Shown here one piece after another: positions 34,541 through 37,948 of a stretch of 64,000 bases of DNA. The notes under the pieces were generated by a model. It was not told the origin of the DNA, made no database searches, and saw only the letters and a program-made list of their open reading frames with translations. Position 1 is the stretch's first letter. Every line of letters begins with the position of its first letter. Origin of the DNA: an uncultured delta proteobacterium (GTDB lineage Bacteria; Desulfobacterota; Desulfobacteria; Desulfobacterales; SG8-13); assembly GCA_963848135.1 (NCBI GenBank), contig CAWKCK010000005.1, forward strand, positions 620,001 to 684,000, read 5' to 3'. The position numbers and the translations under genes are program-made.

Positions 34541-35449
34541 TCAGATTCGGTAAATCTGTTCGGCGTTGCCACAAAAAAGTTCGAAACGCTCATTGTCAGT
34601 ATAACCGCAGGTGATCTCATTATAGGCTGCCCAAAGTCGGGAATAGCTGCTCATCATCCCGTCCACTGGAAAATTGCTGCCGAACATACAACGCTCCACA
34701 CTGAAAGTTTCAATAGCGTGGAGAACCAACGGTCGGATGGATTCAACTGTCCAGTCGCGATCGAACATTCCAAGCCCGGAAATTTTAACGCAAACATTCT
34801 GAAGTTCAGCCAATGACCGCATTCCCTTTCGCCAGATTTTAAGATTCTCTTCATCTAGTTTGTAAGGCTGCCCTGTGTGACATAGGATAAACTGCAGATC
34901 TGGATTTTCCTTCACCAATTCGCATGCTTGGCCCATTTGTTGGGGATATACTTGCAAATCAAACGAGAAATCAAATTTCTTCAGCAAAGGGATATTTTTC
35001 TGCCACACTGAATTTTCGAGCAATGAGGGTCTATGATTATTTGGGTCAACCAAACACTCGTGCAGCATCTGACGGATGCCCCGAACGTTTGGGTAATTGC
35101 TATGGGCTTCGAGCATGGACTGCACATCAGAACGACCAAGATCTGCGTAAGCGATGATACCGTGAGGAAAACCCCTCGAACCTGGCGAATCAGCAACCAT
35201 TTGAAGCCATCTAGTTTCCCTTACTGGATCGGCGTGATCGTGCTCTGCCTGAACATGGATAGATTTAGCCAGATTAACATCAGCGGCATCTTTGAAAAAA
35301 TCTTCTAAGATATAATTCCTTCGAATTGCTGAATATTCTCCGCAGACTCGATTTGTAATGTGATCCGTAAGCCATGGATAGTAGTTGGTGTTAAGGTCCC
35401 ACAAGTGGTGATGCGTATCAATCATTGTTACAGGATTGGGTGAGGACAT
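34541..35449 (-). CDS. Amidohydrolase family (sugar-acid/pyrone lactonase-like, COG3618 type)
   Basis: IDTHHHLW, VRGIRQ, CH.G.P, VKISG, FGSNFP. Confidence 0.85.
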   Translation of the reverse strand: MSSPNPVTMIDTHHHLWDLNTNYYPWLTDHITNRVCGEYSAIRRNYILEDFFKDAADVNLAKSIHVQAEHDHADPVRETRWLQMVADSPGSRGFPHGIIAYADLGRSDVQSMLEAHSNYPNVRGIRQMLHECLVDPNNHRPSLLENSVWQKNIPLLKKFDFSFDLQVYPQQMGQACELVKENPDLQFILCHTGQPYKLDEENLKIWRKGMRSLAELQNVCVKISGLGMFDRDWTVESIRPLVLHAIETFSVERCMFGSNFPVDGMMSSYSRLWAAYNEITCGYTDNERFELFCGNAEQIYRI

Positions 35450-35570
35450 TTGAATTGCTAATGATTTAGGGTTAACATCAGAGAAAATCGTTTATTGGCT
35501 ATCTGAAACCGAGCCGCCCAATATTAGTTTCAGAATTTGATTTAAATTACATTTTTTGAAAAATAAATCT

Positions 35571-35665
35571 CCCTGCAGCTTGCTGTAGGGTATCAAAGCT
35601 GATTAATTTTTTCCCCTCTCCCCAGGGAAAGGGAATGTGTGGTGACCCTGTAGCGAGCTACAGGG
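35571..35665. repeat. Pair of inverted REP-like palindromes
   Basis: ccctgcagcttgctgtaggg (35571-35590) and ccctgtagcgagctacaggg (35646-35665), each a hairpin and near reverse complements of each other. Confidence 0.6.
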
Positions 35666-35786
35666 AATAATCAAGTTTAAAGTTGCTTGATAATCATCTA
35701 AAAGGCACCTCCCGTTCGCAAATGACACAGCGATTCGTTATAAAGGGTTAACCGCAACCATAACCCTATAACGTAGGAGGTGCCCT

Positions 35787-36806
35787 ATGGAACTGTATGC
35801 CGGTCTGGATCTTCATTCAAGAAATACCTACATCGGAATCATGGACGATGCATTGAATCGTGTTTTCAAAAAGCGTGTGGCCAATGACCTTGACCAGATT
35901 CTTCACACGTTAGAACCCTTCAAAAAACGATTAAAGGGATTCGTTGTAGAGTCCACCTACAACTGGTACTGGCTCGTAGATGGCCTCATGGATGCGGGAT
36001 ATGGCTCTGCACACTTGGCCAACCCGTCGGCAATCAAACAATACGAAGGGCTAAAGTACAGTGACGATCAGCATGACGCCTTTTTTCTGGCCCAACTTCT
36101 CATACTCGGTATTTTGCCCGAAGGCTACATTTACCCAAAGCAACATCGCCCGGTGCGGGACCTGGCACGCAAACGGATGTTTTTAGTCCGGCACAAGACC
36201 GCGAACATCTTGAGCCTGCAATCGCTCATTCAAAGATGCTGTGCAGTAAAAATAAGCACCAGTGACATCCGAAAGATGAACGTCGAAGCATTGGAAAGGT
36301 GGCTAAAAGAAGAGTACCTGATTTTCTCTGCTCAAACCAGTTTGGATACAATAAATTTTCTCAAGCAGAAGATCAAAAGTATAGAGAAAGCAGTAATAGA
36401 AAGAGTAAAACTCAAAAAAGGGTTCAGGCAATTGCTGACAATACCCGGTATCGGTAACATTCTGGCTATGACTATCATGCTGGAAGTGGGTGACATCAAT
36501 CGTTTTCCAAAGGTCGGCAATTTTGCTTCCTACTGTCGGTGCGTGCCATCCAAGCGGTTGTCCGACGGAAAAAGCAAGGGGTGTGGCAATCGTAAAAACG
36601 GCAATCGCTACCTGAGCTGGGCCCTCACTGAAGCCGCTCAATTGGGCCGTCGGTATAATGAACAGTTTAGACGATACTATAACCGCAAGGTTGCTCAGGC
36701 CAATACAAGTCTGGCGACCAAAGCGCTGGGCAACAAACTGGCCCGCATCTGCTACTATATCATGAGAGATCAGGTTCCCTTTCGTGAGGAGCTTCTTGCG
36801 CAATAG
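35787..36806 (+). CDS. IS110 family transposase/recombinase (DEDD RuvC-like + Tnp20)
   Basis: GLDLH, VVEST, KYSDDQHDA, TIPGIG, catalytic-Ser region SDGK, GNRYL; GGAGG RBS. Confidence 0.95.
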   Translation: MELYAGLDLHSRNTYIGIMDDALNRVFKKRVANDLDQILHTLEPFKKRLKGFVVESTYNWYWLVDGLMDAGYGSAHLANPSAIKQYEGLKYSDDQHDAFFLAQLLILGILPEGYIYPKQHRPVRDLARKRMFLVRHKTANILSLQSLIQRCCAVKISTSDIRKMNVEALERWLKEEYLIFSAQTSLDTINFLKQKIKSIEKAVIERVKLKKGFRQLLTIPGIGNILAMTIMLEVGDINRFPKVGNFASYCRCVPSKRLSDGKSKGCGNRKNGNRYLSWALTEAAQLGRRYNEQFRRYYNRKVAQANTSLATKALGNKLARICYYIMRDQVPFREELLAQ

Positions 36807-36809
36807 TTT

Positions 36810-37110
36810 GGGACTGCAGCGGTGATCCTTTGCTATTGGTGGTTAAAATCCCTATTGCTTGGTTGGCCACCGCTGCACTCCCTACAAAATAGATTCAGGC
36901 GGGTGTCCGCTTTTTCGATCTGCCCTTGTCATAAGCTCGCAATGGCTGGCCCGAAAGGAGCCCTATCTCTTGTGACAACCCAATTGGCTTTGACAAGGTA
37001 CCGATCTTTTTCTGGGGTCCGATTACGGACCAGGGGCTTTAGATATTCTCTCTTTGGCCTTGATCCTGATGGGTGCCTGTTAGCAGATTAAGTGACGCTG
37101 CACAGCAAAC
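36810..37110 (+). ncRNA. Candidate bridge RNA / seekRNA in the IS right end
   Basis: Series of long stems (tgcagcggtg/caccgctgca; ccttgtca/tgacaagg) with short matches to target and donor; boundaries approximate. Confidence 0.55.
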
Positions 37111-37351
37111 AAAAAGAAATTTCGGGAGCAGGTAAAAAAATAGGACGAACGCCGTACTGAATTATAGTCCTGCAAAAAAATGTACCCCTTTTGCGATGGC
37201 GAGGTGTTTTTTGTTGACGGAAGCCTTTTAATGGGTGCCAATCTCGTAACTGTCGAAAATGGCGTTGAAACTAAATATATGCTCTGAGTATTATCGGTTT
37301 ACCTCGGGATTTCTCCGAATGTCAAACATCAATAGCCAAAGGTGGTAAACC

Positions 37352-37794
37352 ATGAAAGTGTCCAAAGCAGCCAAAATCTGGATCGATTACCACACGACCC
37401 ATTCAAAAAAAATACGGTAAGATTCTACCAAGCCATCATTGAACGATTCATCCAGGAGTTCGGTAATGGCCCCATCGATCAAGTCACCCCCGAGCACTTC
37501 CCCACCTTCCTGAACCGATTCACCGAGGGCAACAAGCCCTACACCAAGCGGGTCCGCTATTCCCAGCTGTCATCCATTTTCAATTTCGTTCGCAACAATA
37601 TCAATCCTGATGTTAGGAATCAATGCGACACACTCATGATTCGAAAGCTGTATCGGGAGAGAGTGCCAGCGAGATGGGATATCATTGAAAAGGAAACCGG
37701 TGACGAAATTATTCTCGGAACCACTAAACAATTATCCTCCATACATGTGAATTCTTCGATCTATTACATGTTGAATATGATAAGAAAGGCCTGA
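37352..37794 (+). pseudogene. Frameshifted, truncated tyrosine recombinase/integrase (N-terminal part only)
   Basis: ATG 37352 MKVSKAAKIWIDYHTTHSKK continues in the -1 frame after an A8 run as NTVRFYQAIIERF...WDIIEKETGDEII; no catalytic domain follows. Confidence 0.7.
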
Positions 37795-37948
37795 AAATGA
37801 ATGATTTGATAAAAATGGCTGTAGAAAAGTTTGAAACATTCTAATCGGAAATTATGTTACGGTACCTTTCTTGGCATCACGACCCTATATAAATTTGTAA
37901 TATGGCCGTAAGTGTAAACCTGACATTTTTGGTCTCCAGTATATATCT

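Follow-up and report, generated by a model that had tools for sequence, protein, structure and literature searches.

A predicted guide RNA in the non-coding right end of an IS110-family insertion sequence with IS1111-type organisation from an uncultured delta proteobacterium

Identification of the insertion sequence and its predicted guide RNA

We analysed a 64,000-nucleotide (nt) stretch of DNA from an uncultured delta proteobacterium (GenBank assembly GCA_963848135.1, contig CAWKCK010000005.1, positions 620,001 to 684,000 of the forward strand; hereafter the window, from whose first letter positions are counted) and found that positions 35690-37237 are occupied by an intact, multi-copy insertion sequence of the IS110 family with IS1111-type organisation and the core dinucleotide TG, its boundaries being taken from aligned full copies and their flanks. 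With a probability of roughly 0.8, we regard it as an active element whose non-coding right end specifies a guide RNA of the bridge RNA/seekRNA kind. A preliminary description, made from the letters of the sequence, had proposed such an RNA on the basis of short matches to the target and donor of the element. This proposal was partly supported: the main idea was right and two of the five proposed guide words were wrong. The decisive evidence is comparative and does not come from matches within the single sequence; stems of the putative RNA are kept by compensatory changes in related elements, and its guides change together with the DNA flanking each element, although transcription and binding by the transposase would have to be assumed. 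The parts of the element and its target are listed below.

35683..35689, + strand: left target half TTGCT and core TG (35688-89) at the left junction, from the alignment of eight own-genome copies.
35690..35706, + strand: left end of the element, with the right-donor half ATAATCATC (35690-98) followed by the inverted repeat TAAAAGGC (35699-706).
35787..36806, + strand: transposase gene (339 amino acids) with DEDD_Tnp_IS110 and Transposase_20 domains (Pfam E values 9.7e-11 and 1.1e-19).
36813..36879, + strand: loop 1, predicted target-binding loop (covariance model R1, stem covariation and guide-flank permutations), with stem 36813-24/36868-79; CC at 36827-28; 5' guide at 36829-39, whose ATTGG is complementary to top-strand CCAAT in the right flank; inner mini-hairpin at 36840-51; 3' guide at 36852-61, with TTGCT plus TG in the same sense as the left flank and core; GT at 36862-63 in the handshake position; and scaffold TTGG(C) at 36863-67.
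36898..36915, + strand: small hairpin with a T run behind it, in the interval between the first two loops, read from the sequence and below the threshold of the terminator scan.
36924..36998, + strand: loop 2, of the same design as loop 1 and present in all 73 related rows aligned, with stem 36924-31/36991-98; 5' segment CGCAATGGC at 36938-46; inner hairpin at 36947-62; putative 3' guide CTATCTCTTG at 36963-72, ending in the core TG; and an A-rich linker plus ATTGG at 36973-90.
37003..37079, + strand: module 3, predicted donor-binding module, its motif being conserved in 72 of 80 related loci, with candidate right-donor guide GATCTTTTT at 37003-11; hairpin at 37012-33; conserved CCTTGATCC at 37058-66; left-donor guide plus core GATGGGTG at 37068-75; and handshake CC at 37076-77, equal to the first two nt of the right flank.
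37077..37105, + strand: terminal hairpin (CTGT..GCAG / CTGC..ACAG) with GATTA in its top; relatives keep the hairpin with a changed sequence.
37214..37237, + strand: right end of the element, with the -35 box TTGACG (37214-19), inverted repeat GCCTTTTA (37223-30), left-donor half ATGGG (37231-35) and core TG (37236-37).
37238..37394, + strand: right target half CCAAT, the first bases of a repeated tyrosine-recombinase element (PF13495, PF00589).

Covariation of loop 1 with the insertion site

One genome per species was scanned for relatives, and the best 80 of at least 578 were retained (L040-L119); they share 51-89% protein identity and come mainly from Desulfobacterales and other sediment lineages. 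Close relatives align across the whole non-coding region, and distant ones retain islands at 36994-37037, at 37056-37079 and at the terminus. Flanks of the relatives were placed by means of conserved end motifs. Among 14 close relatives, the loop 1 stem shows compensatory replacement of G-C by A-U, and two segments of the loop vary with the flanks. The alignment of 35 loop 1 sequences comprises an 8-bp outer stem with compensatory changes at 7 pairs, a CC/GG closure and a 2-bp inner stem; in all, 8 of 12 pairs have changed in a compensatory manner (for example, 19 GC and 14 AU at one pair). The first stem given in the preliminary description (tgcagcggtg, 36815-24, with caccgctgca, 36868-77) is real, its full extent being two pairs greater (36813-24/36868-79). 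Covariance model R1, built from this alignment, found loop 1 in 76 of 81 sources and scored window loop 1 at 68.8 bits (E 8e-14) on the + strand and 16.1 bits on the - strand. In a single-sequence fold of 36807-37110 only the loop 1 stem was recovered (z = -2.79) and loop 2 was mispaired, and this fold was not used for the structure.

Sources without a loop 1 match (L069, L076, L092, L096 and L107) were excluded; L092, L096 and L107 have no downstream sequence and L076 has only 551 nt of it. The non-coding region of L069 is short, at about 266 nt, with the donor module directly behind the 5' half of loop 1 and with neither target guides nor loop 2, and this is probably a defective copy. Four loci (L080, L100, L101 and L102) were left out of the right-flank tests because their end is tandemly repeated, which obscures the flank. 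In these four and in L040, a tandem repeat of the terminal 15-45 nt of the right end directly follows the element, resembling an adjoining solo terminus. For loop 2, L114 (a misaligned row) and L080 were excluded, the latter from the alignment.

The guides of each element were compared with its own flanks and with flanks shuffled among 64 distinct guide pairs (61 sites). The reverse complement of the 5' guide agreed with right-flank positions 1-8 at frequencies of 0.79, 0.85, 0.90, 0.74, 0.61, 0.46, 0.41 and 0.51, compared with 0.43, 0.91, 0.53, 0.40, 0.33, 0.34, 0.29 and 0.33 after shuffling. For the 3' guide and left-flank positions -1 to -8, the observed values were 0.92, 0.95, 0.78, 0.83, 0.83, 0.24, 0.10 and 0.29, and the shuffled values 0.33, 0.41, 0.35, 0.44, 0.47, 0.28, 0.15 and 0.33. 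The observed mean was reached in 0 of 2000 shuffles for either guide and, for the 5' guide, in 0 of 3000 when the register could slide by up to 2 nt and shuffling was confined to clades. Covariation of guide positions with targets across homologues, the check named in the preliminary description, was looked for and found in loop 1. Going by the per-position matches, the left guide spans 5 nt and the 2-nt core, and the right guide 5 to about 8 nt. For example, the 5' segment reads TACTGG where the right flank is CCAGTAC (L040), TAGG where it is CCT.. (L042) and CGTAATGG where it is CCATTATG (L046), and the 3' segment reads GTCGTG with the left flank TCGTG (L048, L050) and TTTCTTG with TTTCTTG (L056, L057). 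The eight copies in the genome of the window itself match the window's guides at 3-5 of 5 positions on the left and 3-5 of 5 on the right, one of them (L003) matching the right flank over 8 nt. Taken together, these data indicate that the hairpin at 36813-36879 is the predicted target-binding loop, with a 5' guide that tracks the right flank and a 3' guide that tracks the left flank and core.

All strings of the preliminary description lie where it placed them (besides the two arms above, TTGCTTG at 36855-61, ATGGGTG at 37069-75, GATTA at 37086-90, ccttgtca at 36924-31 and tgacaagg at 36991-98), and two given without coordinates, ATTGG and TTGGC, were found at 36835-39 and 36863-67. Its reading of TTGCTTG, identical to 35683-89, as left-target guide plus core and of ATTGG as right-target guide agrees with the permutations. 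TTGGC, also proposed as a right-target guide, belongs instead to the scaffold (A/G)TTGG, which is near-invariant across relatives and independent of the right flank.

The matches could in principle be fortuitous and the region an ordinary 3' untranslated tail. When 416 nt of the non-coding region were subjected to mononucleotide shuffling (200,000 shuffles for 7-mers and 20,000 for 5-mers), ATTGG arose in 40% and GATTA in 39% of the shuffles, as a chance origin of these 5-mers would have it, whereas TTGCTTG arose in 3.8%, ATGGGTG in 3.2% and both 7-mers together in 0.12%. In view of these frequencies, the case from the single sequence is suggestive for the 7-mers and empty for the 5-mers. Chance is nevertheless already contradicted by a structure conserved with covariation and by a guide-flank agreement that no permutation reached, and we give this explanation next to no credence.

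Donor module, core and handshake bases

A second set of predicted guides resides in module 3, whose motif CCTTGATCCnGATGGGTG, followed by two variable bases, accounts for the 72 loci mentioned above. GATGGGTG stands in the same sense as the right end plus core, and the ATGGGTG in it, identical to 37231-37, had been taken as left-donor guide plus core, a reading that fits the variants: GGATG in the guide accompanies GGATG at the element end in 7 of 7 cases (L103 group), and in L117 the core is CG in flank, end and loop 1 guide alike. The guide extends 2 nt further than had been described, and these two bases follow the right flank; in 60 of 62 loci the dinucleotide after the donor guide (CC, AC or TC) is identical to right-flank bases 1-2, and the donor-module classes CC, AC, TC and GGG/GGA follow the right junction. 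The core TG of the preliminary description holds as well, since TG stands at both junctions in 8 of 8 own-genome copies and in 50 of 56 related loci.

Loop 1 has bases of a corresponding kind. The two bases after its core equal the first two of the left end in 43 of 61 loci, and 13 more have G in loop 1 where the left end has A (G-T wobble allowed). These handshake bases are GT in the window and AT in most relatives, and in L102 (AA) and L042 (G as second base) the position follows a changed left end.

The left-donor guide plus core is thus supported by comparison, and the right-donor guide remains a candidate. GATTA, formerly proposed for that role, lies in the top of the terminal hairpin and is replaced by GATCA or other letters in relatives that have kept the same right donor end; in the hairpin itself, TGT/ACA is replaced by GGT/ACC in relatives. 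A stem TTGATC/GATTAA closing a loop around ATGGGTG was considered and dropped, the relatives showing the terminal hairpin instead. Judged by its position, GATCTTTTT (37003-11) is the probable partner guide for the left end; it is complementary to ATAATCATC at 6 of 9 positions in the window and at 7 of 9 in most relatives; most related loci carry the same left end as the window element. In close relatives (L041-L047, L056 and L057), an extra hairpin of about 70 nt (GGTTGC...GCAACC), absent from the window, is present in the donor module between the equivalents of 37037 and 37056.

Loop 2, an additional loop of target type

The further large stem of the preliminary description closes loop 2 (36924-36998) and is kept in all relatives aligned, in every one of which loop 2 lies between loop 1 and module 3. 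Its design runs in the order of stem, xGAGyC, 5' segment, inner hairpin (TGG...CC(A)), 3' segment ending in TG, ATTGG and closing stem. Compensatory changes occur at 7 of 11 pairs, and U-G pairs are numerous (19 of 43 at one pair); together with the strand scores of R1, these U-G pairs place the RNA on the + strand. With filters off, R1 detected neither loop 2 nor module 3 in window 36880-37240. Weak matches (16-19 bits, E 0.09-0.44) were found at seven places, in L118, L063, L065, L066 (two), L082 and L101, five of which, those outside L082 and L101, fall at loop 2 by their coordinates. As detection by R1 is nil or weak, the likeness of the two loops rests mainly on their shared design.

The 3' segment of loop 2 agrees with the left flank at frequencies of 0.86, 0.65, 0.67, 0.60 and 0.77 (shuffled, 0.34-0.48), a result reached in 0 of 2000 permutations, and with wobble allowed the first two positions rise to 0.97 and 0.96. 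The 5' segment appears to follow the right flank at clade level only (4 of 3000 permutations reach the observed value overall with a sliding register). We rejected loop 2 as a donor-binding loop, its guides not matching the joined ends; its 3' guide is complementary to the left end at 7 of 8 positions in one clade, a feature absent from the clade of the window. Target loops seem to have been often duplicated and lost. Two strong loops of R1 type, besides loop 2, are present in L075, L068, L074, L098, L099 and L082, and L108 has a second at 38 bits; the tandem copies in these seven relatives carry different guides, their non-coding regions measure 560-650 nt, and the insertion site of L075 fits its second loop and not its first.

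For the role of loop 2, we would rank a second target reader ahead of an aid to recognition of the left junction for excision, and the latter ahead of a relic of the scaffold. A more general proposal, that a clade of IS1111-like elements uses a three-module guide RNA in which the extra loop supplies a second target specificity or reads the left junction for excision, is put forward tentatively, as we consider it less likely than not. If true, it would constitute a natural multiplexed or direction-controlling bridge RNA. We found no description of an extra target-type loop in bridge RNAs or IS110 elements in the literature text, a search that covered the text and not the figures and supplements of the key papers, which may show multi-loop IS1111 RNAs. 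According to the text of Durrant et al., many IS1111 RNAs hold their donor-binding bases in a multi-loop structure, and the three-module form may for this reason already be drawn there.

An unlikely, though not negligible, alternative is that loop 1 alone functions as a guide RNA, in the manner of the short seekRNA of ISEc11, and that the remainder serves processing, stability or transposase binding, its matches being by-products of a common ancestry of the loops. For ISEc11, an 82-nt RNA is described as sufficient for movement, the paper leaving open what the long form does (PMC11187229). Here, a hairpin and T run follow directly 3' of loop 1 (36898-36915), which, going by the sequence, may possibly represent the 3' end or a processing site of a short RNA form, and neither the right-donor guide nor the 5' segment of loop 2 has a convincing partner. 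It is harder to reconcile with such by-products that the dinucleotide after GATGGGTG tracks the right flank so closely and GGATG the element end, that the 3' guide of loop 2 tracks the left flank beyond all permutations, and that loop 2 and the donor motif are retained in relatives down to 51% protein identity.

Transposase, ends and copies of the element

In the transposase, DEDD_Tnp_IS110 (PF01548) scored 42.1 bits (cut-off 29) and Transposase_20 (PF02371) 71.1 bits (cut-off 21.3). In an alignment with the solved transposase of IS621 (8wt6, E 1.2e-8), E55, D94, D97 and S259 fall on catalytic positions; D8 (GLDLH) lies outside the aligned stretch and was read from the sequence only. The domains, the D-E-D-D plus Ser residues and a core dinucleotide found in target and element without target duplication are those of the IS110 family. 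Several features are those of the IS1111 group: a non-coding left end of 97 nt and right end of 431 nt (36807-37237; about 430 nt in the preliminary description); subterminal inverted repeats of 8 bp (TAAAAGGC and GCCTTTTA, 9 and 7 nt from the element ends), within the 7-17 bp of that group; and, in loop 1, a top-strand match 5' and a bottom-strand match 3'. The IS1111 consensus GL-P----S(T)G reads RCVPSKRLSDG here, P and S being retained and GL and the position of the final G not. We file the element as IS110 family with IS1111-type organisation; by its anatomy, it appears to belong with the IS1111-type elements.

Besides eight full copies (91-100% identical), the genome contains two fragments of the left end and one copy that has only the right end. 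The flanks of the full copies differ, and all are bounded by ..CTTG|ATAATC and ATGGGTG|CCA..; from their alignment, the left junction is ..CTTG|ATAATCATC and the right junction ..AATGGGTG|CCA.., and since TG stands at both, TG was taken as the core. Joining 37237 to 35690 yields, as computed from the sequence, the near-consensus promoter TTGACG, 17-nt spacer, GATAAT, with ATAAT within ATAATCATC forming most of its -10 box; TTGAC is retained at the -35 position in the located right ends of relatives. Promoters of this kind are known at the junctions of circular IS110/IS1111 intermediates.

The two left-end fragments (L010, C2:293005-293250; L011, C18:594483-594686) stop about 100-150 nt into the transposase gene, and their left junctions are normal (..CCTTG| and ..TTTCTTG|). 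The third partial copy (L009, C18:407659-408086) consists of the RNA region and right end without transposase gene or left end and starts at an internal ..TTTG|GGACTGCAG site, 3 nt past the stop codon. Its guides, TACTGG and TTTCTTG, differ from those of the full copies and fit its own flanks, ..CTTTCTTG | ... | CCAGTACC; together with L003 it exemplifies natural retargeting within one genome. L009 has the look of either an RNA-only module mobilised in trans or the product of a site-specific deletion at an internal pseudo-end. The start of this copy just ahead of loop 1 indicates that an internal site (..TTTG|GGACTG) has served as a left end, as would be expected if the internal matches acted as DNA, either as protein-binding sites or as recombination pseudo-ends, and not as RNA. 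We consider this very improbable: both loop stems show many compensatory changes and, in addition, G-U pairs workable on one strand only, the score of R1 is strongly strand-specific, and the two guides run in opposite senses exactly as in the proven RNAs.

Several repeats adjoin the element. The right junction is near-palindromic in all clades, since the reverse complement of the right end is similar to the right flank (AATGG-GTG-CCAAT in the window, e.g. 37230-37242, and AATGGGT-G-ACCCCATT in most relatives); in the GGATG/TCCT clade, flank and end have changed in step. Immediately left of the element are the short palindromes CCCTGCAGCTTGCTGTAGGG and CCCTGTAGCGAGCTACAGGG (window 35571-35590 and 35646-35680), the second of which occurs at four more places in the genome (L022, L023, L025 and L026), like a small repeated extragenic palindrome.

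Target site and transcripts

The sequence to the right of the element is a repeat that starts at TG 37236-37 and occurs at nine other places in the genome, each starting at exactly the same base; uninterrupted paralogous sites read ..CT|TGCCAGT.., the left neighbour mostly ending in CT. At least six of the eight insertion-sequence copies sit at ends of this repeat family. As the repeats start at the insertion base, insertion takes place precisely at the outer edge of a different mobile element. This repeated element (window 37236-37800) begins TGCCAGTCTCG.. and encodes a SAM-like N-terminal domain and a Phage_integrase domain (tyrosine recombinase); sites of the repeat include C18:551461, C17:1237871, C17:1226209, C5:35486, C18:882142, C17:1240788, C1:75854 and C17:44653. 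In the seven copies that keep the start of the recombinase gene (six paralogous and that of the window), no open frame of at least 90 amino acids continues from the start; five of the six paralogous copies have an A run about 50 nt in, and the catalytic part forms a separate frame (183 amino acids in three copies). Programmed frameshifting could account for the split, as could an assembly error in the homopolymer.

Four metatranscriptome studies contain contigs, 90-99% alike, that extend from the coding into the non-coding region (for example, 1046 nt over 36036-37081) and diverge at about 35681 and 37240, the limits of the element. They leave stretches uncovered, and three joints, each in a single contig, skip 36-100 nt. 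This coverage establishes presence in RNA libraries only. A terminator scan found nothing inside the non-coding region.

Proposed mechanism

Excision of the element as a circle would join its ends and create the sigma-70 promoter described above, from which the transposase gene would be transcribed together with the non-coding region 3' of it. The stretch of about 290 nt at 36813-37105 would then fold as three modules and act as bridge RNA or seekRNA. Loop 1 would read the insertion site, its 5' guide pairing with the top strand of the right half (CCAAT) and its 3' guide with the left half and core (TTGCT+TG) on the bottom strand, and the two bases past the core, which match the start of the left end, would occupy the position of a handshake guide. 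Module 3 would read the joined ends of the element through GATGGGTG, which would pair with right end and core on their bottom strand, and probably through GATCTTTTT as partner guide for the left end; the CC after GATGGGTG, matching the start of the right flank, would be the second handshake guide. The 3' guide of loop 2 may read the left target half too, so that this loop could be a second target reader or an excision aid. The preferred site in the genome would be the outer boundary of the repeated tyrosine-recombinase element. The order of strand exchange in this scheme is likewise presumed.

A number of observations tell against this reading. With respect to the samples, the flanks of relatives were located from end motifs and not from empty sites, and related elements are non-independent samples. 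With respect to the RNA, the contigs from RNA libraries can carry DNA, show neither ends nor strand and give no direct proof of a discrete RNA; a promoter scan of the linear element found no promoter-like site inside the non-coding region, and the Rfam 15 covariance models gave no match in 35400-37500 at E values up to 1. In the donor module, the guide occurs in only five sequence classes, so its covariation rests on few events, and permutations reached the observed 8-mer value in 525 of 5000 cases and the observed dinucleotide value in 159 of 5000; three of the 62 loci (L062, L065 and L066) break the dinucleotide rule, the GG expected to close module 3 reads GT in the window and L040, and GATCTTTTT is unchanged, without covariation, in relatives whose left end differs at positions 4-5. 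The 5' segment of loop 2, at fixed register, was matched by 1279 of 2000 permutations against the right flank and, with sliding register within clades, by 236 of 3000, and it fits right end and right flank equally poorly (4.8 and 4.7 of 8). Finally, the transposase shares only 28% identity with that of ISEc11 over 212 amino acids (residues 118-325 only), and R1 found nothing in the non-coding region of the ISEc11 locus, though a seekRNA is proven there. R1 also found nothing at the expected place in a Caballeronia plasmid copy, where only about 170 nt lie between the protein match and the next gene.

Comparison with known systems

The element would represent a further bridge RNA/seekRNA of the IS110/IS1111 kind, provided that its RNA is transcribed and bound by the transposase. 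According to the text of PMC11208160, guide RNA predictions exist for 93% of IS1111 elements, and the mining of tens of thousands of loci is described (bioRxiv 10.64898/2026.10.21.760802), so that the surprise is limited; the claim of a new programmable recombinase ortholog was fair, as one more member of a heavily mined family. A third module and spacer hairpins account for the unusual length that had been claimed for the RNA. The guide RNA was nonetheless readable from the raw sequence of an insertion sequence of an uncultured sediment bacterium, a clean confirmation by computation only. The guide positions, core dinucleotide and handshake bases defined here are parameters for testing the enzyme as a programmable recombinase, and about 60 natural retargeting events are available for one RNA scaffold. 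The conserved extra loop and the mobile RNA-only module, the parts most worth experiment, bear on a question named in the seekRNA paper, which concerns both the function of the long RNA form and the way in which IS1111-type elements recognise their own ends.

The closest likeness is to the IS1111-type elements ISEc11, ISPa11 and ISKpn4, as described in the text of PMC11187229, which treats match order, the sufficiency of a short seekRNA and the need for target flanks at the donor. These share with our element a long non-coding region 3' of a transposase of about 340 amino acids, subterminal inverted repeats, a single stem-loop with the top-strand match 5' of the bottom-strand match and a small inner hairpin between them, a circle junction that forms a promoter (as predicted here), and a target at the edge of, or within, another repeated element. 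The ISEc11 non-coding region can itself be read with the layout of loop 1, CAGTATTTT ... GTGAAAATA around the published target. They differ in the size of the RNA, about 290 nt in three modules here and 82 and 154 nt in the published forms, in the motif, P----SG there and P-SKRL-SDG here, and, for ISEc11, in the low transposase identity given above.

Likeness to IS621, whose guide logic and handshake guides are described in the texts of PMC11208158 and PMC13626964, extends to the DEDD plus Ser recombinase, to two guide pairs (the right-donor guide being a candidate here) that read opposite half-site strands around a shared core dinucleotide (also PMC11208160) and to a 2-nt handshake guide after the core-proximal guide in each loop, which matches the partner DNA only after strand exchange. 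Here, however, the RNA lies 3' of the gene and not 5', the core is TG and not CT, and the guide order is mirrored, so that the handshake bases come after the left guides. In addition, there is an extra target-type loop, and the donor module, in place of a simple internal loop, is broken up by hairpins.

IS4321 and IS5075, of the IS1111 group, reportedly insert into the terminal repeats of Tn21-family transposons. To judge by the title of the report on them, they share with our element a fixed insertion point at a terminus of some other mobile element, which in our case is a small tyrosine-recombinase element whose boundary is targeted.

A parallel to ISPpu9 and its ssr9 module, which is mobile on its own (PMC12288879), is offered by L009, a transposase-less copy of RNA region and right end that runs from an internal pseudo-left-end to a normal right end. 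The two modules differ in that ssr9 is reported to be unneeded for transposition (PMC12288879), whereas L009 holds the predicted guide RNA itself and its site fits its own guides. By count of loops, three modules are predicted here, compared with two loops described in IS621 and one needed in ISEc11.

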